Source: Escherichia phage vB_EcoM_NBG1
Sequence record: MH243438.1
Reading direction: 5' to 3' (one strand)
Length of the DNA stretch: 64,000 nt
The notes beneath the pieces were generated by a model. The model saw only the letters and a list, made by a program, of their open reading frames with translations. It was not told the DNA's origin and did not search any database. The translations under genes and the position numbers were made by a program. This document shows positions 20,215 to 62,219 of the stretch, piece after piece. Each line of letters begins with the position of its first letter. Positions within the stretch are counted from its first letter, which is position 1.

Positions 20215-20245
20215 ATAGTATCACACATCCATGTGTTTGTAAACT
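20215..20245 (-). promoter_or_regulatory. T4-type early promoter
   Basis: GTTTAC -35 and TATCAT-type -10 on the - strand, followed by the conserved caacaacATGAGGAAA leader; upstream of the alt.-1-like gene. Confidence 0.6.
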
Positions 20246-24343: not shown

Positions 24344-25168
24344 TTAACAATTTATAGACCAAGTCCATTTAGACGAATCTAAAGGAAAGTTTTGAATCGT
24401 CCACCACGGCTGCATATCAGTTGGTCCTGGGGTTCGCCAGGTATATGGAGTACGTGTTGTCGAGGGGCCACCAATTTGATTAGGCCATGCACCTGGACTT
24501 GTTGCACCAGATTCTTTAAGCAAATCCGCCAATCGTTTTAAAAGGTCTTCACGATCTGAATCTGAATTATTCTTAGGCAGAACCAAACGAGATTCAATAT
24601 CATCCCACGTGTGTACACGTTGTGCAGTACGAGGAATGGCATCACGTTCACCACGAGCCAACCAATAAATCGGTACATTAAGAATTTCTGCCGCATGGTC
24701 ACAATGATGAGCTAAATCGTCAACGTAACAAATTACGTTATATTTTGTTTTAGCTAGTTCGAATAATTGTTCCTTTGAAGAATCATGACCACACATCATT
24801 ACTTCAGAGAAAGCGCCTGGGAACAAAGCATTCAAATTAAATTGTCTATTCAATCGAGCATCAATTGAATCACCTAGCGCCGTCACGGCTACAAAATTAT
24901 AGTCTTCTTTTAGTTTATTGATAACTCGAAGAGCATCAGAATAAGGCGCTAAGTAACGAATAAAATCAGAGCTATTATATTTTTCTATTAATTGTTTACC
25001 AAGGTTATCGTCGGTATTGAACAGTTTACCAGGAGAAATAAATTTTTCGTCCTGAATCATTTTTAAAATATGTTCTAATGGAAGGTTATATTTTTGGGCA
25101 AAATAAGGAAGTCCAGATTGCCAGCTTAAACATACACCATCAATATCAGTCAAAATAGTAGGCTTCAT
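24344..25168 (-). CDS. HAD-superfamily-like hydrolase (30.2 position)
   Basis: 274 aa; N-terminal ILTDIDGV resembles HAD motif I (DxDGT/V); unusual Trp/Pro-rich C-terminal tail. Confidence 0.55.
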   Translation of the reverse strand: MKPTILTDIDGVCLSWQSGLPYFAQKYNLPLEHILKMIQDEKFISPGKLFNTDDNLGKQLIEKYNSSDFIRYLAPYSDALRVINKLKEDYNFVAVTALGDSIDARLNRQFNLNALFPGAFSEVMMCGHDSSKEQLFELAKTKYNVICYVDDLAHHCDHAAEILNVPIYWLARGERDAIPRTAQRVHTWDDIESRLVLPKNNSDSDREDLLKRLADLLKESGATSPGAWPNQIGGPSTTRTPYTWRTPGPTDMQPWWTIQNFPLDSSKWTWSINC

Positions 25169-25632
25169 AAAGAGTCTCTTAGTAGGTTTAACACGTCAAT
25201 AAATTCATCTTCAGTTAGTATTGTATCATCTTTTGTTAGATGGCTGGCCATGCTGTGCTTCAAAATTTTTCCTTTAGAGGCTTGTAAGGCATCACGAAAC
25301 CCCTTGTTTTGGATCGCGGCTTCAAAATATGCATTTGTGTATAATTCTTTCCACGCTTCGGAGTATCTTGAAAATGGAACTCCTAACCAGAAGAGAGTCC
25401 CACGGTCCTGAGCTCTTGCGTAAGACCTTCCAGCTTGCTGTGCAGCCAATCCAGACAACCCAAATATACGTCTTTGCTGTTCAACATTTTTCACCTTACA
25501 TCCTTGGAGAAATCCTTCAAGACCTCCGAATTGAATACCATCCATAACAAAAGGCCATTGAGCAAAGTTACTTAATGCACATGACGGCCACTTGAAATTA
25601 CTTCTTATTTCTAATTCAGACATCTTTAACAC
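25165..25632 (-). CDS. Possible NADAR/YbiA-like domain protein (30.3 position)
   Basis: 155 aa; pattern LSNF...DG..F...E.F.Q..K recalls the NADAR/YbiA family; assignment is from motif memory only. Confidence 0.45.
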   Translation of the reverse strand: MLKMSELEIRSNFKWPSCALSNFAQWPFVMDGIQFGGLEGFLQGCKVKNVEQQRRIFGLSGLAAQQAGRSYARAQDRGTLFWLGVPFSRYSEAWKELYTNAYFEAAIQNKGFRDALQASKGKILKHSMASHLTKDDTILTEDEFIDVLNLLRDSL

Positions 25633-25834
25633 TTATAATTTCAACATCCGCCCAATGTCCGTATCCAGGTATACGGTCTTCGATAGATAAATTTCTGTCA
25701 TTTTTAGGCATTTTAATTGACGTAACGTATGGTTCTAAACGGTTTTCCGCGTAATATGGAAAAACGTCGGTTACACGATAAGTAACTTCAATCATTTCCG
25801 TACCAAACAATTTCTGGATTAATTTATTCAACAT
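25616..25834 (-). CDS. Hypothetical protein
   Basis: 72 aa ORF in - strand early operon. Confidence 0.45.
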   Translation of the reverse strand: MLNKLIQKLFGTEMIEVTYRVTDVFPYYAENRLEPYVTSIKMPKNDRNLSIEDRIPGYGHWADVEIISVKDV

Positions 25835-26021
25835 GTTTCAACCCTTTAATAGGAGATAACTCTTTACCCATACGTATGTCAGAAGTCCAATCAACCCATT
25901 GAACAGCATACGCTTCATTGATAATTCCAGCAGCGGTTTTAAATTCAGGGAGAACTTTAAAAATCACCCCAGGAATTCCAACACCTTTTAATTGGACTGT
26001 TTGTGCTATTAAAAATTTCAT
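25824..26021 (-). CDS. Hypothetical protein
   Basis: 65 aa ORF; early promoter at 26045-26077. Confidence 0.45.
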   Translation of the reverse strand: MKFLIAQTVQLKGVGIPGVIFKVLPEFKTAAGIINEAYAVQWVDWTSDIRMGKELSPIKGLKHVE

Positions 26022-26044
26022 ATTTTTCCACTTACTAAAGAAAT

Positions 26045-26077
26045 CATTATACTCTAATCCGTCCTTGGATGTAAACT
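26045..26077 (-). promoter_or_regulatory. T4-type early promoter
   Basis: GTTTAC -35 with GAGTATAATG -10 on the - strand. Confidence 0.55.
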
Positions 26078-26690
26078 ACTTAATGAAATTAATTTCTACC
26101 GGATGAACAACAGGTTGAGCAGTGATATATTGAGTAATTGCTTTCATGACTAGAGCTTCAGAACCAGGATTTTTCTCAACGAATTCACGTGCTTGGTTAT
26201 GAGCTTCAAGTTCACTTAGTAAACCACTTCGTTGACATCCACGGTCTTGAGTACCCTGTTCAGATAAAAAGGCGACGATGTATTTTTCATCGTCATACGG
26301 TTTAGACGGTTGAGCAAATGTTCCTTTACTTCCAAAAGGAGAGTTATGACGCCACATCACGCCGTGAGGAGTTTCAACCTTCGTGTATTCATGCGGTCCA
26401 TTTTTCTTAGTTTCTTTCCATGGAACTTCATGGACCTTAGGGTTAGGACATTCAATAAAATGCTCATCTAAATCGGTCGAGAATATTAAAGTAAAACAAT
26501 TACTGAATTTACCAACACCTGCCTGATAAATTTTACCTTCAGAAGTTCTAATTTCACAAACTGAGCCAGCATCAGTAACTTCTAAAACTTCAAAAGGCTC
26601 GATAAGGTCATATGAGAACATGTTTTTAAGGCGTGGAGTAATATCCCCATTTTTAAAATTCATTTTATAAAAAGTATTAACTTTAAACAT
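26076..26690 (-). CDS. Hypothetical protein
   Basis: 204 aa ORF, no recognised motif; shares short GSVCEI motif with the next ORF. Confidence 0.55.
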   Translation of the reverse strand: MFKVNTFYKMNFKNGDITPRLKNMFSYDLIEPFEVLEVTDAGSVCEIRTSEGKIYQAGVGKFSNCFTLIFSTDLDEHFIECPNPKVHEVPWKETKKNGPHEYTKVETPHGVMWRHNSPFGSKGTFAQPSKPYDDEKYIVAFLSEQGTQDRGCQRSGLLSELEAHNQAREFVEKNPGSEALVMKAITQYITAQPVVHPVEINFIK

Positions 26691-26725
26691 AATTTCCTCA
26701 ATGGGAGCCGAAGCTCCCAGTTAAA

Positions 26726-27091
26726 TTAGATATCAAATTCGTTAAGAACTACATCAAAGATTGCTTCGAGATGTTCATGTTTAGCTCGGTTACTCAGGAT
26801 ATGACGAATCCAAGTTTTAACCAGAAGTTTACGATTAACACCGTTCCAGCAAGGATGAGTACCTAAATCACGCTGACGGAAATCATCATCTAATGCAATT
26901 TTGAAGTTGGAACCTTCCATTGTGATTGAAACCGTGATGCCATTTTCAAATCGCATATAAACATAATTAGGAGTCATGCACTGCTCAATTTCACATACTG
27001 AACCATTTTTATGCTTCCACAAACAAACCATATCGATAGAACCAGCGATACCGTTAGAAACATATTTGCGTTCGAAGTTGGTGTAGTTCAT
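26726..27091 (-). CDS. Hypothetical protein
   Basis: 121 aa; early promoter at 27131-27162; shares CMTP motif with next ORF. Confidence 0.55.
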   Translation of the reverse strand: MNYTNFERKYVSNGIAGSIDMVCLWKHKNGSVCEIEQCMTPNYVYMRFENGITVSITMEGSNFKIALDDDFRQRDLGTHPCWNGVNRKLLVKTWIRHILSNRAKHEHLEAIFDVVLNEFDI

Positions 27092-27130
27092 TTTATTCTC
27101 CAGATGTTTAAGTTGTTTGTTGGTACAGGT

Positions 27131-27162
27131 CTATAATAACATAACCTGTACCAAAGTAAACT
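27131..27162 (-). promoter_or_regulatory. T4-type early promoter
   Basis: GTTTAC -35 and GTTATTATAG -10 on the - strand; upstream of the 121 aa ORF. Confidence 0.6.
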
Positions 27163-27165
27163 GTT

Positions 27166-27534
27166 TTATGCAACTTTAATCCAATTGTCTAAATTTAAAA
27201 CACCTTTGGCTTTCATTTTTTCGATCAGGTTATCTGCTGTAATGCGTCCATTTTGATACCATGTAACATCTTCAGAGTAACCAGTTTCTTCGTCAACATA
27301 TGTTTCTGAACGAATTTTACCGGTAATAATAGTTTTTAATTCGTATGTGTCACCTGTGAAAAAGTTTGCTAACACAATTTTCCAAGAGAAATCATCTGAA
27401 GGACCTTCAGGGGTCATACAACCTACGAACTCAAATTGCTCTTTGTATAACATCCACTGGAATTCTTTAATTTCGATAGCTTTATAACCGTCGTGGTCTT
27501 TACATTTGATGTATGAGTTCAGATTGATTTTCAT
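27166..27534 (-). CDS. Hypothetical protein
   Basis: 122 aa; early promoter at 27574-27605. Confidence 0.55.
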   Translation of the reverse strand: MKINLNSYIKCKDHDGYKAIEIKEFQWMLYKEQFEFVGCMTPEGPSDDFSWKIVLANFFTGDTYELKTIITGKIRSETYVDEETGYSEDVTWYQNGRITADNLIEKMKAKGVLNLDNWIKVA

Positions 27535-27573
27535 TTTATTCTCCGATTGTTTTATTGATTAGGTGGTACAAGT

Positions 27574-27605
27574 CTATAGTAACACATCCTACAGGAGAGT
27601 AAACA
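27574..27605 (-). promoter_or_regulatory. T4-type early promoter
   Basis: GTTTAC -35 and GTTACTATAG -10 on the - strand; upstream of the 122 aa ORF. Confidence 0.6.
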
Positions 27606-27634
27606 TCTTTTTTTAAACTTTTTCTGCCCTAAAC

Positions 27635-27662
27635 GCACAAAAGGGAGACCGAAGTCTCCCTA
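27635..27662 (-). terminator. Terminator after the 59 aa basic ORF
   Basis: - strand GGGAGAC-TTCG-GTCTCCC followed by TTTT. Confidence 0.7.
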
Positions 27663-27665
27663 AAA

Positions 27666-27845
27666 TTATGCAACAACCTTTCCAAAACGAGAAGCATCAT
27701 CTCGAAGAACTGCACGTGCTCTGCGCATGATCTTCTCAACGGTTTGATTAATACGAGAGTTCGACCCACGCTTGTATCCAGCGCGTTTAGAGGTACCATC
27801 AACTTTCTTTTCAACTGCTTTCTTTGCTTTAGCTTGTTTTGCCAT
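27666..27845 (-). CDS. Hypothetical small lysine/arginine-rich protein (not in ORF track)
   Basis: Hand-translated 59 aa (MAKQAKAKKAVEKKVDGTSKRAGYKRGSNSRINQTVEKIMRRARAVLRDDASRFGKVVA); SD AAGAG upstream; terminator hairpin right after stop; replaces the track's 27629-27814 ORF. Confidence 0.5.
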   Translation of the reverse strand: MAKQAKAKKAVEKKVDGTSKRAGYKRGSNSRINQTVEKIMRRARAVLRDDASRFGKVVA

Positions 27846-28008: not shown

Positions 28009-28257
28009 TTATTTCAAAGTAATAACAAAATGACGAACTGCTTTGCGTGCTGCAGAAGCCAGAGGCTTAGCATATTTCAATTCATCTTTAGCTTCCAGTT
28101 CAGAAGCCAGAGTAGCCTGAGCAGGATTCAGGTGTTTGAAATAACGCAGGATTTCCAGTGCTTCGGCTTCAACATCAATTGACGCACCGTAGTTTTCGTG
28201 ACCGTTATTCCATGCGTTGCGTTGCAGTTCAAGAGCGTGTTGTAATTGTTTAATCAT
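28009..28257 (-). CDS. rIII: Lysis inhibition accessory protein rIII
   Basis: 82 aa; MIKQLQHALELQRNAWNNGHENYGASIDVEAEALEILRYF... matches remembered T4 rIII. Confidence 0.9.
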   Translation of the reverse strand: MIKQLQHALELQRNAWNNGHENYGASIDVEAEALEILRYFKHLNPAQATLASELEAKDELKYAKPLASAARKAVRHFVITLK

Positions 28258-28381: not shown

Positions 28382-28714
28382 TCACTTATAAAGACACGGA
28401 ATAGCTTTATAGTGGCATGTTACGAATTTCTGTTTAATTTCTTTAGGTTGTTTAAGTCCCAAAGCCACAAATGGATGTGGAACATTTCGAATTTGTCCAA
28501 CTGGCAGTGGAGTCAAATCACCGACTTCAACAAAACCTTTAGGAACATCAGGACCTACAGAATGAACTACACATAGTTCAGGAACTTCACCTTGAACACG
28601 TTTACCAATCACAAGTCCTGATTCGGTAACTTCTTCATCACCTGCTTGAGCGGGTTCAGAAACCAGAATGACATATTCACCAACAGCACGAATTGGGAGT
28701 TGTACTTCAGACAT
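28382..28714 (-). CDS. 31: Head assembly co-chaperonin gp31 (GroES analogue)
   Basis: 110 aa; [29 protein letters not shown]...[15 protein letters not shown] matches remembered T4 gp31. Confidence 0.95.
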
Positions 28715-28771: not shown

Positions 28772-29080
28772 TTACATAAGAAGCAAACGTTCTACCGGAG
28801 TACCATCAACCGAAATTACTTTATCAAGGCGGAAAGAACGCCACTGACCTAACTTGGTATCGAATGCTCGAACTGATTCACGAGGTTCAGAACGAACTTC
28901 TGTCGATGGGTTACTATTTTCATATTTTACTTCAAGTTCATCACGGGAGGCAAGCATCGTACGAACATCACCATTAGCCTTTTCAAATACAACACAATGA
29001 ACGCCTACAGACAGAATAGTTTTAATACGTTCACGAAGAACCATAGTTTCTTGTTCAGTTAAAATCATATTATTCACCAC
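28772..29080 (-). CDS. Hypothetical protein (31.1 position)
   Basis: 102 aa ORF between cd and gene 31. Confidence 0.6.
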   Translation of the reverse strand: MVNNMILTEQETMVLRERIKTILSVGVHCVVFEKANGDVRTMLASRDELEVKYENSNPSTEVRSEPRESVRAFDTKLGQWRSFRLDKVISVDGTPVERLLLM

Positions 29081-29651
29081 AAAAGTTTCGAATTTGTTCC
29101 CAATTCAGAGAACGAAGATTATTACGAGAGTACTGAATTACTTCAATACCAGCTTGTTTAAGAATGTCTGCCCAATTTTCAGGAGATCTGTCATATAATT
29201 CCGCGTATACAACCTTTTTAATACCTGACTGCGTAATAGCTTTAGTGCAATCAGGACACGGAGAAAGCGTAGTATATAACGTAGCACCTTCAATAGAATT
29301 ACCTTTACGAGCTGCAAACAAAATTGCATTCAGTTCCGCATGGATTTCGTTATTGGCAGACCAGGCACTATGAGCGGCCCGATGTTCTTTAGCCAAAACA
29401 AAATTATCTGCCCGTCCAAATGCTGTAGTGCCTTCTTTATGTCCAGCAATGATGACCGGTCTTGGATTATTCTTCAACCAGCCATTTTCGGATGCATGTT
29501 CGCAACAGTTAACACCACCTGAAGGAGAGCCATTATAACCTGTAGAAATAATGCGTCCATCTTTTTCAATGACGGCACCAACTTTCCATGAACAACATTT
29601 TGATTCTTGAGAAATCAGATATGCAATCTGAAGGTATGTGCTAGCTTTCAT
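29070..29651 (-). CDS. cd: dCMP deaminase
   Basis: 193 aa; zinc motifs HAELNA and SPCPDC; matches remembered T4 Cd in length and sequence. Confidence 0.95.
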   Translation of the reverse strand: MKASTYLQIAYLISQESKCCSWKVGAVIEKDGRIISTGYNGSPSGGVNCCEHASENGWLKNNPRPVIIAGHKEGTTAFGRADNFVLAKEHRAAHSAWSANNEIHAELNAILFAARKGNSIEGATLYTTLSPCPDCTKAITQSGIKKVVYAELYDRSPENWADILKQAGIEVIQYSRNNLRSLNWEQIRNFCGE

Positions 29652-30643
29652 TATTGAACCTTATTAATATAAGTTAACAGCTCTTTAGTTTGTTCCCAAC
29701 TGATGCACGCATCGGTAACGGAAACGCCATAGGACATATTATCAGAAATTTTTTGATTTCCTTCATGTAGGAACGATTCTATCATAATTCCTTTGACCAA
29801 ATCATTAGCTGCTAAATTTTTACCAATACCAATTTGATTGCTATAATGCCCATCAGCGTTTGCATGGCTACAGTCAACCATTACATAATGATTCAGACCT
29901 ACTGCCCTTGCTTTGTTAGAAGCTTCTTGAATATCAGAAGAATGATAGTTCGGGCCGTTGGTCCCGCCACGCAATACGATATGCGTATTCTGATTACCTT
30001 CAGCTTCAACAATGCCTACAGTACCATCGACGTCCATACCCATATACCGATGAGGCCAGGCGGCACTATACATCGCGTCTGTAGCTACTTTAATAGAACC
30101 ATTGGTTGCGTTCTTGAAGCCTACGCACATCGGTAGACCTGAAGCAATTTCACGATGTGTCTGACTTTCAGTCGTACGGGCGCCAATAGCAACCCATGAG
30201 AAAATACCAGAAAGATACTTAATCGTGAACGGGTCTAATACTTCAGTTGCTAATGGAAGTCCCATACGTAGAAGTTTACGACACAATGTTCGTGCAACTA
30301 TAAGACCGTGGTTCATATCAAAACTTCCGTCAAGATATGGATCATTTACAAGACCTTTCCAACCTACGGTAGTTCGAGGCTTTTCAAAATAAACGCGCAT
30401 CACTAACAGAACATTAGGAAGACGAGTTTGAAGTTCAGCCAAACGTTTGCCGTATTCAACAGCAGCAATAGGGTCATGAATTGAACAAGGACCTACAACA
30501 ATAAGTTTGCGTGGGTCTTCACCGTTCATAATCGAATTAACTTGTTCGCGATGAGAAGCCACTTGTGATGCGTAAGCTTCCGACAAAGGAATAATCTCAG
30601 CCAGTTCTTTTGGAGAAATAAGTTTTCTGATGACAGGTAACAT
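29651..30643 (-). CDS. 3-deoxy-D-arabino-heptulosonate-7-phosphate (DAHP) synthase, class I (AroG/F/H-like)
   Basis: 330 aa; VGPCSIHD, VYFEKPRTTVGWKGL, AIGARTTESQTHRE, DCSHAN and SVTDACI line up with catalytic and metal-binding motifs of E. coli AroG/AroH as remembered; stop overlaps cd start. Confidence 0.85.
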   Translation of the reverse strand: MLPVIRKLISPKELAEIIPLSEAYASQVASHREQVNSIMNGEDPRKLIVVGPCSIHDPIAAVEYGKRLAELQTRLPNVLLVMRVYFEKPRTTVGWKGLVNDPYLDGSFDMNHGLIVARTLCRKLLRMGLPLATEVLDPFTIKYLSGIFSWVAIGARTTESQTHREIASGLPMCVGFKNATNGSIKVATDAMYSAAWPHRYMGMDVDGTVGIVEAEGNQNTHIVLRGGTNGPNYHSSDIQEASNKARAVGLNHYVMVDCSHANADGHYSNQIGIGKNLAANDLVKGIMIESFLHEGNQKISDNMSYGVSVTDACISWEQTKELLTYINKVQ

Positions 30644-31026: not shown

Positions 31027-31059
31027 TTATAGTATCACAACTCCACCATGTTGTAAACC
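31027..31059 (-). promoter_or_regulatory. T4-type early promoter
   Basis: GTTTAC -35, GTGATACTATAA -10, then conserved ccaacaaATGAGGAAA leader. Confidence 0.6.
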
Positions 31060-33153: not shown

Positions 33154-33185
33154 CATTATACTCTGCTCCTGAGAGTTTGTAAACT
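33154..33185 (-). promoter_or_regulatory. T4-type early promoter
   Basis: GTTTAC -35 and GAGTATAATG -10 on the - strand. Confidence 0.55.
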
Positions 33186-42042: not shown

Positions 42043-42435
42043 CTACTTTTTAAAAGTGTTTTGCAAAAGTTTGATGATTTCGTCGACGTTGGTTTCATCT
42101 ACGATACAATGGATTTTTGTTACACCTAAAGTTACACCTTCGTTAGTAGGTTGAGGCTTTACTAAATCTACCTCGGTAAAGTATTTGAACTCGTCAGGAT
42201 AAATCTCAAAATAAGTTTCAATTTCACCACCGGCAGAACATACAGTACCATCTTCCATAGTTACACTTACTACGTTTGACATATCGCTATCATAATCAGG
42301 TTCCATTCCGTTTACAACAAAACTAGGCCCGTGGAGTTCAATCAATTTTAACATCTTAGCGTTATTGTGTGGTGCTTCTTGAACAAAGTCATCTTTAAAT
42401 AAAGGGTTAATGATATAAGATTTTCCGATTTCCAT
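42043..42435 (-). CDS. Hypothetical protein
   Basis: 130 aa; early promoter cassette at 42461-42494. Confidence 0.55.
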   Translation of the reverse strand: MEIGKSYIINPLFKDDFVQEAPHNNAKMLKLIELHGPSFVVNGMEPDYDSDMSNVVSVTMEDGTVCSAGGEIETYFEIYPDEFKYFTEVDLVKPQPTNEGVTLGVTKIHCIVDETNVDEIIKLLQNTFKK

Positions 42436-42460
42436 TTTGATTTCCTCATGTTGTTGATAG

Positions 42461-42494
42461 GTCTATACTAACACATCCAGGGAAGAAGTAAACA
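42461..42494 (-). promoter_or_regulatory. T4-type early promoter
   Basis: GTTTAC -35, GTTAGTATAGAC -10, conserved caacaacATGAGGAAA leader; upstream of the 130 aa ORF. Confidence 0.6.
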
Positions 42495-42518
42495 ACTTTT
42501 TCGGCAATTTACAGATAC

Positions 42519-42543
42519 TCAAAAGGGAGACCGAAGTCTCCCA
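42519..42543 (-). terminator. Terminator after gene 32
   Basis: - strand GGGAGAC-TTCG-GTCTCCC plus T-run, 6 nt after the gp32 stop. Confidence 0.75.
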
Positions 42544-42548
42544 ATTTA

Positions 42549-45829: not shown

Positions 45830-48800
45830 ATGGCCGACATCAAACGTAAGTTCAGAGCCGAAGACGGTCTGGACGCCGGTGGCGACAAGATTGTTAACGT
45901 AGCATTAGCCGACCGTACAGTAGGTACTGATGGCGTAAACGTTGACTTCCTGGTACAAGAAAACACCGTTCAAGTATATGATTCTACGCGTGGATATAAC
46001 AAAGGATTTGTTGTTCTTTATGACAATCGTTTATATCAAGCAATAAATGATATCGTGTCTCCTTCCGGGGCATTTAACCTTTTACAATGGCGTGCAGTTC
46101 GTACTGATGCACAATGGATAACTGTAGCTTCTGGGACTTATCAACTTTCTTCAGGTGAATCGATTTCTGTTAACACTGGTGCCGGCAATGATATGGTTTT
46201 CACGTTGCCGAATACGCCGGTTGATGGCGATACTGTTGTTTTGGCTGATATTGGTGGAAGAACCGGGACAGTTAAAGTACAGATTAACGCGTCTGTGCAG
46301 AGTATTTTAAACTTTAGAGGTGAACAAGTTCGTACAGTTTTAATGACGCGCCCACGTTCACAACTATTGTTTGTGTTTAGTAATCGTTTGTGGCAGATGT
46401 ATATTACCGATTATGGTAAAGAATCAATCACTGTTACACCTGCGACACCATATCAAGCACAAGCAAATGATTTTATCGTTCGTCGTTTTACTAGTGCAGC
46501 ACCAATCAACATTACACTTCCACGTAATGCTAACAATGGTGATATAATCAGCCTAGTCGATTTAGATAAATTAAACCCACTGTATCATACAATTGTTAAA
46601 ACATTTGATGATACAACGTCTATTGGTGAAGTCGGGACTCATATTGCCGAAGGCAGAAATGACTCTGACGCGTTTTTTGTTTTTGATGCTGCAAGTAGTT
46701 TATGGCGTATATGGGAAGGCGACCAGAAATCGCGTCTTCGTATTATCCGTGCGGATTCAAATATTCGACCAAATGAAGAAGTTCTTATTTTTGGCACAAA
46801 TAACGCTACAACCGGAACTATTAATCTTACGCTGCCTACAGGAATTTTGAGTGGTGACACTGTTAAAATTTCAATGAACTACATGCGTAAAGGCCAAACA
46901 GTAAAAATTAAAGCTGCCGAAGGTGATACAATTGCTTCTTCTGTCGCATTACTTCAGTTCCCTAAACGTTCTGAATATCCACCTGATGCTCAATGGGTCT
47001 CTGTTACTGAACTAGAATTCAATGGCACTACTTCATATGTTCCTGTATTAGAATTAGCGTATATCGAAGACACCGATTCTGACACTCATTATTGGGTTGT
47101 GCAACAGAATGTCCCTACGGTAGAACGTGTCGATGCTGGAACTGATGCTACACGAGCTCGTTTAGGTGTTATTGCTCTTGCTACTCAAGCGCAAGCAAAT
47201 GTTGATTTAGAGAATACTCCAGCTAAAGAAGTGGCTATTACTCCTGAAACATTGGCAAATCGTACAGCAACTGAAGCTCGACGTGGTATCGCTAAAATTG
47301 CTACAACAGCACAAGTTAACCAGAATTCCACAGCATCATTTGTGGACGATACTATTGTTACGCCTAAAAAACTAAATGAGCGTACAGCAACTGAAACTCG
47401 TCGCGGTCTTGCTGAAATTGCTACTCAGGCTGAAACAGATGCTGGTCTTGATGACACAACGATTATTACACCTAAGAAATTGCAGGCACGTCAGGGCTCT
47501 GAAACACTGTCCGGTATAGTTAAATATGTATCAACTACTTCTGCTACTCCGGCTGCATCTCGTGGAACTGCAGGTACTAATGTTTATAATAAAGACACAA
47601 CCACGTTAACTATTTCTCCTAAAGCCCTTGACCAATATAAAGCAACTTATGCTCAACAAGGTGCAGTAATTTTAGCTGTTGATAGTGAAGTAATTGCTGG
47701 TCAATCTCAAGCAGGTTATTCTCACGCTGTAGTAACTCCTGAAACACTACATAAGAAAACTTCTACTGATGGACGTATTGGTTTAATTGAAATTGCTACG
47801 CAAGCAGAAACTAATGCTGGGACTGATTATACACGTGCAGTAACGCCTAAGACGTTAAATGATAGGAGAGCGACGGAAGGATTATCCGGCATAGCCGAAC
47901 TTGCTACGCAAGTCGAATTTGATACTGGAACTGATGATACTCGTATCTCGACTCCACTGAAAATTAAAACTCATTTTGATTCTTCTGACCGTACCAGTGT
48001 TAATTCTGATTCCGGACTTATTGAAGAAGGAACCTTGTGGAACCATTATACTCTTGATATTTCTAAAGCAAATGAAACACAACGTGGTACACTTCGCGTA
48101 GCGACCCAGGCAGAATCTAATGCAGGAACTTTAGATGATGTTCTTATTACTCCTAAAAAGCTTTTAGGGACTAAGTCCACTGAAACGTCTGAAGGTGTAA
48201 TCAAGGTTGCTACTCGGGCTGAAACTGTAACAGGAACTTCTGCTAATACAGCTGTATCGCCTAAGAATTTAAAATGGATTGTCCAGTCTGAACCAACATG
48301 GGCTGCTACTACGGCGATAAGAGGTTTTGTTAAAACTTCATCCGGTTCAATTACGTTCGTTGGTAATGATACAGTCGGTTCAACACAACCTTTAGAATCA
48401 TATGAAAAAAATAGCTATGCTATATCTCCATATGAATTAAACCGTGTACTTGCTAACTATTTGCCATTGAAAGCTAAAGCCGTAGATAGTAATTTATTAG
48501 ATGGCCTAGATTCATCTCAGTTCATTCGTAGGGACATTGCACAGACGGTTAATGGTTCACTAACCTTAACCCAACAAACGAATCTGAGTGCCCCTCTTGT
48601 ATCATCTAGTACTGCTACGTTTGGTGGGTCAGTTTCGGCAAATAGTACATTAACTATTTCTAACTCCGGAACAGCTACTCGTCTGATTTTTGAAAAAGGA
48701 CCTCAAACTGGAACTAATCCAGCACAGACGATGACTATCAGAGTTTGGGGAAATCAGTTTGGTGGCGGATCAGATACAACACGTTCTACTGTATTTGAAG

Positions 48801-49705
48801 TTGGTGATGAAACGTCTAATCATTTTTATTCTCAACGTAATAAAGATGGGAATATAGCGTTTAGCATTAGTGGTACTGTGATGCCAATAAACATTAATGC
48901 TTCCGGTTTGATGAATGTTAATGGCGTTGCAACATTCGGTCGTTCAGTTACTGCTAATGGCGAATTCATTAGTAAGTCTGCAAATGCTTTCAGAGCAATT
49001 AGTGGTGATTACGGATTCTTTATTCGTAATGACGCTGCTAATACCTATTTTATGCTCACTGCATCAGGCGATCAGACCGGCGGATTTAACGGATTACGTC
49101 CTTTAGCTATTAATAATGCATCCGGCCAAGTAACGATTGGTGAAGGCTTAATCATTGCCAAAGGTGCTACTATAAATTCAGGTGGTTTGACTGTTAACTC
49201 TAGAATTCGTTCTCAGGGTAATAAAACATCTGATTTATATACCCGTGCGCCAACATCTGATAATGTAGGATTCTGGTCAATTGATATTAACGATTCAGCC
49301 ACTTATAACCAGTTCCCAGGTTATTTTAAAATGGTTGAAAAAACTAATGAAGTGACTGGGCTTCCATACTTAGAACGTGGCGAAGAAGTTAAATCTCCTG
49401 GTACATTGACTCAGTTTGGTAACACACTTGATTCACTTTACCAAGATTGGATTACTTATCCAACAACCCCAGAAGCACGTACAACCCGTTGGACACGTAC
49501 ATGGCAGAAAACTAAAAATTCTTGGTCAAGTTTTGTTCAGGTGTTTGATGGCGGAAACCCTCCTCAACCTTCTGATATTGGCGCTTTACCTTCTGATAAT
49601 GCAACAATCGGAAACTTGACAATAAGGGATTTCTTAAGGATTGGTAATGTCCGCATTATTCCAGACCCTGTGAATAAATCTGTTAAATTCGAGTGGATTG
49701 AATAA
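45830..49705 (+). CDS. 34: Long tail fibre proximal subunit gp34
   Basis: 1291 aa; MADIKRKFRAEDGLDAGGDKIVNVALADRTVGTDGVNVDFL... and C-terminus match T4 gp34; late promoter 45792-45799. Confidence 0.97.
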   Translation: MADIKRKFRAEDGLDAGGDKIVNVALADRTVGTDGVNVDFLVQENTVQVYDSTRGYNKGFVVLYDNRLYQAINDIVSPSGAFNLLQWRAVRTDAQWITVASGTYQLSSGESISVNTGAGNDMVFTLPNTPVDGDTVVLADIGGRTGTVKVQINASVQSILNFRGEQVRTVLMTRPRSQLLFVFSNRLWQMYITDYGKESITVTPATPYQAQANDFIVRRFTSAAPINITLPRNANNGDIISLVDLDKLNPLYHTIVKTFDDTTSIGEVGTHIAEGRNDSDAFFVFDAASSLWRIWEGDQKSRLRIIRADSNIRPNEEVLIFGTNNATTGTINLTLPTGILSGDTVKISMNYMRKGQTVKIKAAEGDTIASSVALLQFPKRSEYPPDAQWVSVTELEFNGTTSYVPVLELAYIEDTDSDTHYWVVQQNVPTVERVDAGTDATRARLGVIALATQAQANVDLENTPAKEVAITPETLANRTATEARRGIAKIATTAQVNQNSTASFVDDTIVTPKKLNERTATETRRGLAEIATQAETDAGLDDTTIITPKKLQARQGSETLSGIVKYVSTTSATPAASRGTAGTNVYNKDTTTLTISPKALDQYKATYAQQGAVILAVDSEVIAGQSQAGYSHAVVTPETLHKKTSTDGRIGLIEIATQAETNAGTDYTRAVTPKTLNDRRATEGLSGIAELATQVEFDTGTDDTRISTPLKIKTHFDSSDRTSVNSDSGLIEEGTLWNHYTLDISKANETQRGTLRVATQAESNAGTLDDVLITPKKLLGTKSTETSEGVIKVATRAETVTGTSANTAVSPKNLKWIVQSEPTWAATTAIRGFVKTSSGSITFVGNDTVGSTQPLESYEKNSYAISPYELNRVLANYLPLKAKAVDSNLLDGLDSSQFIRRDIAQTVNGSLTLTQQTNLSAPLVSSSTATFGGSVSANSTLTISNSGTATRLIFEKGPQTGTNPAQTMTIRVWGNQFGGGSDTTRSTVFEVGDETSNHFYSQRNKDGNIAFSISGTVMPININASGLMNVNGVATFGRSVTANGEFISKSANAFRAISGDYGFFIRNDAANTYFMLTASGDQTGGFNGLRPLAINNASGQVTIGEGLIIAKGATINSGGLTVNSRIRSQGNKTSDLYTRAPTSDNVGFWSIDINDSATYNQFPGYFKMVEKTNEVTGLPYLERGEEVKSPGTLTQFGNTLDSLYQDWITYPTTPEARTTRWTRTWQKTKNSWSSFVQVFDGGNPPQPSDIGALPSDNATIGNLTIRDFLRIGNVRIIPDPVNKSVKFEWIE

Positions 49706-56270: not shown

Positions 56271-56304
56271 AGTATAGTACCATTATCAGTGTTGATTGTA
56301 AACG
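56271..56304 (-). promoter_or_regulatory. T4-type early promoter upstream of asiA
   Basis: GTTTAC -35 and GGTACTATACTC -10 on the - strand. Confidence 0.6.
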
Positions 56305-57303: not shown

Positions 57304-57764
57304 TAGTAAAGGTCCTCAGAGTAAAGTTCTTTTTCATTACCACCACGTTCAATACGTACTTGTCCAGCGTAAGTTGCAATAATCATTGCTTCTTCACGTG
57401 TCCAATAATTACTATATTGGTCAATAAACCCTTGGTCATCATCACAAACTTGTTGAGTAACTAATTGAGGTTTAACTACATCTAAAACTTCTGCCATATC
57501 TTTAGAATAATGACGAGCACCTGGAATAATAAGAGTTCGTCCATCTTTTAATTTAAAACGGTTGGCTGCGCAGACAATTCGTCGTTGATACTTTTGGTTT
57601 TCATCCCAATACAGAGTCTGCCAACAGATTTCAGGAACTTCATCTAAAACATTTTGTTCTGTATATTCACCACCGTAAGAAGCTAATTTAGCAGCCAGAC
57701 TTTCCGGAGTCTCACGCGACAAAGCTTTATCTAACAGAGCTAAACGTTCTTTAAAAGTTTTCAT
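57303..57764 (-). CDS. Hypothetical protein
   Basis: 153 aa ORF, coupled to neighbours. Confidence 0.5.
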
Positions 57765-58105
57765 TTAAACCATCCTTTAATACGTTGCCAAATAGATTTT
57801 TGTGCTTGTTTATTAACACCAATTGAACGAATAACCGGTTGTGACTGCTGATATTCTTTATAATCTTCTTTATAGATTTCGTAAGCTGCATCAACAAATG
57901 AACTGATCGCTGCCATAAAGTTTTTACGTATACCACCAGGAGCTACTCCATTAGGGAATTCGGAATTTTCTCGAATAATTAAATATAACCCAGCTCTAAC
58001 TTTAACGATAGTTCCAAGATAAGCCCCGTGGTACCAAATATCCCATCCTTCCTGAGTAGGTTCTGCACATTTACGAAGTTCGTTAATAATATTCAGCTTA
58101 TTCAT
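57761..58105 (-). CDS. Hypothetical protein
   Basis: 114 aa ORF immediately downstream of motA. Confidence 0.5.
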
Positions 58106-62186: not shown

Positions 62187-62219
62187 CTACTATATCATAG
62201 TCCTACTTAGTTGTAAACA
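62187..62219 (-). promoter_or_regulatory. T4-type early promoter
   Basis: GTTTAC -35 and ATGATATAGTAG -10 on the - strand; similar to the 61674 element. Confidence 0.55.

Follow-up and report, generated by a model that had tools for sequence, protein, structure and literature searches.

Single open reading frames (ORFs) in the hyperplastic regions of T4-like phages are exchanged through PeSLs, which are composite cassettes of a terminator and an early promoter (PMC4122927; Arbiol 2010, PMC2839356). The T4/PST PeSL promoter consensus is TTTACW-N17-TAYWAT (Comeau 2014, PMC4122927), and incomplete elements have been named 'half' PeSLs by the same authors (Arbiol 2010, PMC2839356; Comeau 2014, PMC4122927). 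In T4, genes 30.4 to 30.8 are early at the RNA and the protein level (PMC9697503 supplement), and the 30.7 mRNA is a standard, experimentally verified substrate of RegB (PMC9409239). For efficient cleavage, RegB and ribosomal protein S1 need an 11-nucleotide (nt) consensus, GGAGAAUAAAA (Durand 2006, PMC1702504); for RB69, a regB gene has been reported that has diverged from T4 RegB (PMC3014915). Here, we compare these systems with a locus of Escherichia phage vB_EcoM_NBG1 (sequence record MH243438.1), of which a stretch of 64,000 nt was analysed, referred to as the window in the following. Three ORFs of 204, 121 and 122 amino acids (aa) in this window had been described as tandem early genes of unknown function that are possibly paralogous, and we refer to this description as the original prediction. 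We consider it likely that these are real but unrelated accessory genes, non-essential and of immediate-early expression, which an RB69-like (Mosigvirus) phage carries in its hyperplastic ligase-rIII region.

The assignment to this genus follows the surroundings of the locus: over a stretch of 2.1 kb, the window is 98-99% identical to the Mosigvirus phages AV110, JS09, HX01 and ATK47, with AV110 as its closest relative at about 99% identity. The lengths and positions of the three ORFs are exactly as originally given. The setting is also confirmed, namely a set of co-oriented early genes in a T4 relative, within its variable region from ligase to rIII; T4 30.6, 30.7 and 30.8 are early by RNA and protein. 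The 121-aa ORF (26726-27091, minus strand) is the orthologue of T4 gene 30.7. It matches PF06919 (Phage_T4_Gp30_7; phrog_1582) with 174.4 bits at a cut-off of 27 over residues 1-120 of 121, and its product is 93% identical to T4 gp30.7. It lies on the same strand as its neighbours, with 30.8 on one side and the 30.6 slot on the other, in agreement with T4, RB69 and 33 further gp30.7-holding loci from other phages, whose ORFs we labelled for synteny. Likewise, the 122-aa ORF (27166-27534, minus strand) is the orthologue of T4 gene 30.8: it matches PF06019 (Phage_30_8) over residues 2-121 with 149.2 bits (cut-off 25) and phrog_1507, is 37% identical to T4 gp30.8 (E = 8e-19), and lies between 30.9 and 30.7, as in T4 and about 30 other loci. 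A Pfam match of gp30.8 to the VbhA antitoxin (E = 0.072) was judged insignificant. The PF06919 and PF06019 families are restricted to T4-like phages of enterobacteria.

The practical gain is one of correct labels, as two ORFs listed as 'unknown' turn out to be conserved genes of T4, 30.7 and 30.8. The original prediction had found no assignable motif in any of the three proteins and overlooked these two named genes. Its notion of lineage-specific cargo applies to the 204-aa gene alone and not to 30.7 and 30.8, which are conserved across T4-like phages. As a separate observation, Cys33 and Cys81 co-occur in gp30.7 of the T4/Mosigvirus clade, and are replaced by Ala and Ser in the remaining relatives of gp30.7; the two residues could possibly form a covarying pair or a disulfide.

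The proposed paralogy of the three genes had been based on two short motifs, which are indeed present: GSVCEI is common to the proteins of 204 and 121 aa, and CMTP(N/E) to those of 121 and 122 aa. Pairwise and profile alignments, which the original prediction had itself proposed, were negative throughout. BLASTP yielded E values of 0.095 (204 versus 121 aa), 0.19 and 2.2 for the three pairs, phmmer (--max) against the 321 ORFs of the window gave no cross match among the three proteins at E <= 10, and hhalign between the three family alignments returned probabilities of 0.05%, 0.9% and 0.2%, which stayed below 1% when wider family profiles were used. A search of the window with phmmer and family hidden Markov models (HMMs) also failed to reveal additional close paralogues for any of these proteins. 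A lack of significant similarity beyond the short motifs, together with unrelated predicted folds, had been named in advance as the outcome that would speak against paralogy, and this is largely what we obtained.

What, then, do the motifs signify? If the three genes were diverged tandem paralogues, the motifs could be remnants of their common ancestry, and for a single pair an exact GSVCEI is indeed rare, as it occurs in 0.05% of shuffles for these two proteins. Moreover, the coding stretches agree at 16 of 18 bases, and the motif is found in a strand-turn-strand context in both structural models, of which the 204-aa model has a predicted local distance difference test score (pLDDT) of 51. 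Yet 9 of the 4186 gene pairs of the window share a 6-mer, and a shared 4-mer such as CMTP is expected in 13% of shuffles, while 32% of all window gene pairs have one. Furthermore, the motifs are not conserved within their families. At the motif positions, most gp30.7 relatives have G-x-V-A-Q-I and Y-W-E-D-N in the alignment, and T4 gp30.8 has V-E-T-T-E-G in place of C-M-T-P-E-G. T4 gp30.7 does contain GSVCEI, but T4 lacks the 204-aa gene; for this reason, we also rejected micro gene conversion as the source of the motif. Finally, the AlphaFold model of gp30.7, which is predicted with confidence (pLDDT 88, predicted TM-score 0.81) and consists of seven β-strands followed by two C-terminal helices, retrieved only gp30.7 relatives from the viral structure library BFVD (TM 0.83-0.86), with no gp30.8-like or 204-like protein among the top 50 matches. 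Paralogy of the three genes is refuted at the sequence level, and we regard common ancestry of the motifs as very improbable.

The third ORF (204 aa, 26076-26690, minus strand) lies in the 30.6 slot. As a whole, the protein matches only phrog_17531 among the PHROGs and no Pfam model; NCBIfam and PADLOC gave no matches. In T4, and in RB69 itself, the same slot holds gp30.6, an unrelated protein of 93-95 aa, with which the 204-aa protein shows no detectable relation (BLASTP E = 1.5 against T4 gp30.6; phrog_2153 is not among its PHROG matches). Judged by these comparisons, the gene is a replacement within the genus, in which RB69 carries gp30.6 and the AV110/JS09/HX01 group the 204-aa gene. It is intact in 113 Mosigvirus records with at least 94.6% aa identity, and a ratio of nonsynonymous to synonymous polymorphism (pN/pS) of 0.3-0.4 indicates purifying selection. 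The protein can be divided into two modules, an N-terminal β module (residues ~1-85) and a C-terminal α/β module (~132-195), with an insertion of ~46 aa between them (86-131). Its AlphaFold model, built on an alignment of seven sequences, has the low score mentioned above, and a fold search with it returned only its own relatives and low-TM matches. In the PDB, sequence searches with the three proteins and four family profiles yielded nothing but noise: we rejected the matches to T4 gp33 (E = 0.13) and a KDM4A Tudor domain (E = 0.17), and also those to WD40 proteins (E = 0.0098), in which no stretch passes by itself.

Relatives of the 204-aa protein were sought with a full HMMER search of 1.84 billion representatives and with jackhmmer on the locus ORFs. 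In the HMMER search, residues 1-84 matched P0068, a protein of 146 aa encoded downstream of 30.7, in the same slot as the 204-aa gene, and residues 92-195 matched four stand-alone proteins of 118-152 aa, whose genes are located in the 30.9-30.8 interval of other T4-like phages (P0063-P0066, SP18 gp30.6A). In the 33 loci, zero to three extra ORFs of ~150-177 aa are found between 30.8 and 30.7 and directly after 30.7. The proteins of these two slots align with each other in hhalign over 145 columns (97.4%, E = 1e-11), and the 204-aa protein aligns with the set from after 30.7 at 96.8% in its N module and with the set from between 30.8 and 30.7 at 92.8% (E = 4e-7) over both modules, with a gap of ~46 residues. 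Its PHROG matches to proteins of this kind range from 1e-6 to 6e-3. In the family thus outlined, the N-terminal β module shows the pattern F-x-V...G-x-V-x-x-I, and the C-terminal module, a strand-helix-strand unit, the pattern T-x-E-E-A...N-P...V-x-I-x-K. The family is not represented in Pfam, and its parts are spread over several PHROGs; a match of one relative to the goF PHROG (E = 0.0046) was judged insignificant. It is present in one copy in this phage and in two or three copies in more distant T4-like phages.

On this sequence evidence, the 204-aa protein is a member of a multi-copy, two-module family with slots around 30.7. Four hhalign controls of this family against gp30.7 and gp30.8 all stayed below 1%, and the alignments indicate that, across the wider phage group, the paralogous genes of the locus are interspersed with 30.7 and 30.8 but do not include them. 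That the variable ORFs around 30.7 form one homologous family is, as far as the profile comparisons go, the mildly new point of this analysis.

It is possible, but to us doubtful, that the 204-aa gene arose recently by fusion of two genes, one encoding an N module as in the slot after 30.7 and the other resembling the stand-alone genes between 30.9 and 30.8, and not from an ordinary family member by gain of an insertion. The separate HMMER partners of its two parts are what a fusion would leave, and the stand-alone genes occupy a different slot, upstream of 30.8; their products have both the insertion segment (HxYT...WKHNSPWG) and the C module in common with the 204-aa protein. Against a fusion, a single hhalign alignment to the family of the 30.8/30.7 slot covers both modules of the 204-aa protein and leaves only the ~46 aa as a gap, and P0068 and other family members already have an N module and a short C module. 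This makes the two-module architecture ancestral, and the stand-alone proteins might just as well have arisen from it by truncation at the N terminus.

Another ORF of the window touches on this family. A Frd.2-like ORF of 130 aa (42043-42435, minus strand), which adjoins gene 32, matches PF03197 (4e-34) and phrog_622 (2e-36), and the N module of the 204-aa protein also matches phrog_622 (4e-5), as do the relatives of this protein. With borderline scores and a direct hhalign probability of 6.6%, this ORF may be a very distant relative of the N module within the window.

Upstream of the three genes, the predicted regulatory elements are unevenly distributed. The early promoter of 30.8 (27576-27604, minus strand) consists of GTTTAC, a 17-nt spacer and TACTAT, preceded by an A-rich UP-like tract, and that of 30.7 (27133-27161, minus strand) of GTTTAC, a 17-nt spacer and TATTAT. 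They are predicted to be strong sigma-70-type promoters from the features of T4 early promoters, that is, a -35 GTTTAC, a spacer of 17 +/- 1 nt, a -10 TAnnAT and an A-rich tract, and that of 30.8 conforms to the PeSL promoter consensus given above. The two cassettes share 76% of their bases along the 75 nt from GTTTAC to the ATG (repeat family D13), and early promoters recur across the window as repeat families D2-D5, D8, D9 and D13. For the 204-aa gene, we detected no sigma-70-type promoter between the upstream hairpin (see below) and the ATG. The heading of the original prediction placed each gene behind its own cassette, thereby contradicting its own body text; this is true of the 122- and 121-aa genes, but not of the promoterless 204-aa gene. 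The body text had correctly placed the element at 26045-26077 downstream of the 204-aa gene and assigned it to the following gene: the promoter at 26046-26075 (minus strand; TTTACA, 18-nt spacer, TATAAT; 11 of 12 consensus matches) serves 30.5. It overlaps with the stop codon of the 204-aa ORF and is part of the swapped segment described below.

The 30.7 promoter has a further peculiarity, an 11-bp inverted repeat, TTGGTACAGGT...ACCTGTACCAA, which encloses its -10 box (27120-27154, minus strand). T4 30.7 has the same promoter with an 8-bp inverted repeat. Inverted repeats of at least 5 bp around the -10 hexamer occur in 6 of the 19 early-promoter matches, compared with 3.6% of random positions; the other five lie at 20215-20244, 31029-31058, 33155-33184, 56274-56303 and 62189-62218 (all minus strand), and that of 30.7 is the longest of the six. 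As only the 3' arm would be transcribed, this is a feature of the DNA.

The leaders of 30.8 and 30.7 bear the hallmarks of RegB targets. In both genes, the Shine-Dalgarno region is an exact copy of the 11-nt RegB/S1 consensus GGAGAAUAAAA, at 27534-27544 (minus strand) for 30.8, where it runs into the start codon, and at 27091-27101 (minus strand) for 30.7; the exact GGAGAATAAAA is found at both positions, and both leaders terminate in GGAGAATAAAATG. The consensus has three exact copies in the window, two of which are these leaders, and both leaders are predicted to be unstructured (minimum free energy 0), as RegB requires. By analogy with T4, 30.8 and 30.7 would be expressed as a brief pulse within minutes of the start of infection, after which their mRNAs would be inactivated by RegB.

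The 204-aa gene begins differently. It initiates from GAGGAAAUU-AUG, with GAGG as its ribosome-binding site (26696-26699, minus strand) and with neither a GGAG nor a RegB site. Between 30.7 and this gene lies a UUCG hairpin, GGGAGC-UUCG-GCUCCC (26703-26718, minus strand; -14.1 kcal/mol), and the layout of hairpin, GAGGAAA and ATG is also found before the unrelated 30.6 of T4 and RB69. The gene would probably be expressed by read-through from the 30.7 promoter and escape RegB. Alternatively, the hairpin could be an efficient terminator, with the 204-aa gene poorly expressed early or transcribed from an unrecognised middle or late promoter. Its stability would fit such a role, as would its annotation as a rho-independent terminator in phage ATK47 and the missing sigma-70-type promoter downstream of it. 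However, the stem is not followed by a U tract but by AUUGAGGAAAUU; T4 30.6, with the same layout, is nevertheless detected as early RNA and early protein; and the gene is intact in the 113 genomes and under purifying selection. We therefore think termination improbable and read-through the better account.

An intrinsic terminator is found further upstream, after 30.9 (27636-27660, minus strand): GGGAGAC-UUCG-GUCUCCC is followed by UUUUGUG (-14.7 kcal/mol, z = -3.75). Its sequence CAAAAGGGAGACCGAAGTCTCCC occurs in identical 23-nt copies at 27638-27660 and 42520-42542 (repeat family D20), both of which precede an early promoter of the same family. Together with the elements described above, it makes the 30.8 cassette (27535-27660) a complete PeSL of stem-loop terminator, A-rich tract, promoter, ribosome-binding site and ATG. 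The 30.7 cassette comprises only the promoter half, with no stem-loop upstream, and the 204-aa gene has only the stem-loop half. Elsewhere in the window, a near twin of the 30.8 PeSL lies between gene 32 and the next ORF (42436-42547).

These cassettes coincide with the borders of mosaic segments. Homology to T4 breaks exactly at the 204-aa ORF (26022-26683) and at 30.8 (27162-27677). RB69 has no counterpart for 25838-26683, and the unmatched segment extends from a shared ATGTTTA to the start of 30.4, so that the breakpoints of this swap fall on the start codon of the 204-aa gene and the next gene boundary; in general, the breakpoints relative to T4 and RB69 are at cassette/ORF boundaries. Within the genus, single genes are likewise mosaic. 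Compared with ATK47, 30.7 is 93% identical at the nucleotide level between flanks of 97-99%, and its synonymous divergence (pS) is 0.22, as opposed to 0.03 for the neighbouring 204-aa and 30.8 genes; different 30.7 alleles thus circulate within Mosigvirus. Compared with RB69, the 30.8 allele is 67% identical and the cassettes on both sides 97%. The regulatory cassettes are hence more conserved than the ORFs that they flank, and we infer that the locus diversifies via recombination at PeSL-type promoter/stem-loop cassettes. In this respect, it is ordinary for a T4-like phage, with conserved promoter, stem-loop and RegB-site cassettes framing ORFs that are exchanged singly.

As to the role of the three proteins, library, PDB and profile searches yielded no enzyme-like match for any of them. 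From their sequences, all three are soluble and mildly acidic (pI 4.9-6.5), and pN/pS across the locus genes is 0-0.4. A screen of phage AV110 (2026 preprint) covered 45 early proteins with T4 homologues and identified six growth inhibitors, Gp94, 135, 204, 208, 214 and 263. By the order of protein accessions, with the offset checked at Gp94/MotA, the locus genes correspond to about gp40 to gp46 in AV110, so that none of them is among the six inhibitors. With low confidence, we picture the three proteins as small, soluble, non-enzymatic binders of host factors that might act in host takeover or counter-defence, as genes of such regions usually do, and would not be toxic alone. Going further, the family of the 204-aa protein might represent undescribed, rapidly diversifying and cassette-swapped factors for host-strain-specific counter-defence or host takeover, in which the 46-aa insertion confers a new target specificity and 30.7 and 30.8 act as conserved partners; we offer this as speculation that is rather unlikely in its entirety. 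At any rate, the two-module family provides a defined candidate set for host-range or anti-defence tests.

Several points weigh against our overall view of the three genes as unrelated, non-essential and immediate-early. The presence of gp30.7 and gp30.8 in the screened AV110 set is presumed from their homology to T4, and the 204-aa protein was probably outside this set, because it has no T4 homologue. For RegB cleavage, hairpin read-through and PeSL recombination, we extrapolate from T4 and related phages, and a regB gene of this phage would lie outside the window. Finally, a very remote common fold of gp30.8 with the other two proteins is conceivable.

The growth-inhibitor screen also bears on another part of the window. 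The ORF at 57761-58105 (minus strand), beside a motA-like gene, is 86% identical to AV110 Gp94, which has been named Emp and described as an inhibitor of MreBCD-dependent cell-wall synthesis (2026 preprint). It differs from Gp94 by a 5-residue insertion and several substitutions around residues 36-62.

The gene order of the region, established from Pfam, PHROGs and the T4 map, is that of a T4-like phage, with every gene on the minus strand. The three ORFs are preceded by cd (29070-29651), 31.1 (between cd and 31), 31 (28382-28714), rIII (28009-28257) and 30.9 (27666-27845), and followed by 30.5 (25824-26021), 30.4 (25616-25834), 30.3 (25165-25632) and 30.2 (after 30.3). The backbone cd-31.1-31-rIII-30.9-30.8-30.7-...-30.2-30 is constant in the 33 gp30.7 loci. 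Directly upstream of cd, the dCMP deaminase gene, lies a gene of the DAHP synthase family (330 aa, 29651-30643, minus strand; PF00793, 5e-75). T4 has small cd.x ORFs at this position, and the metabolic gene is specific to this phage group. Further away, the plus-strand ORF 45830-49705 is, by the AV110 annotation, the long tail fibre proximal subunit, and direct repeats of 48-67 nt that have diverged from one another (families D1 and D6) lie within it at 47108-47944 (plus strand).

How closely does the locus resemble its described counterparts? The gp30.7 homologue agrees with T4 gp30.7 in length, slot, orientation, the early promoter with an inverted repeat at -10 and the GGAGAAUAAAA leader, and differs from it in allelic changes only. 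Gene 30.8 shares with its T4 counterpart the slot, an early promoter of its own and a RegB-type leader, but the C-M-T-P-E-G-P-S-D-D-F segment, which the 122-aa protein has in common with most gp30.8 relatives, is replaced in T4. Both leaders follow the RegB/S1 sites of T4 early mRNAs, with an exact consensus over the ribosome-binding site of an unstructured leader; the T4 30.7 site is cleaved, and the orthologous site here is a predicted target. The 204-aa gene shares the slot of T4 and RB69 gp30.6 (phrog_2153), its position behind the 30.7 hairpin and a GAGGAAA ribosome-binding site, and the lack of its own promoter, but the proteins are unlike in sequence and size, which marks a gene replacement and not an orthologue. 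Its true counterparts are the two-module proteins of phrog_8920, 5804, 3710 and 34397, with which it has the modules and the position adjoining 30.7 in common; phrog_622 (T4 Frd.2, Pfam PF03197) may be distantly related to them, and the ~46-aa insertion is common only to the stand-alone proteins of another slot. Lastly, among the PeSL elements predicted at this locus, only the 30.8 cassette is complete; they share the setting of the published PeSLs, a hyperplastic region in which the ORFs differ between close relatives and the cassettes are more conserved than the ORFs.

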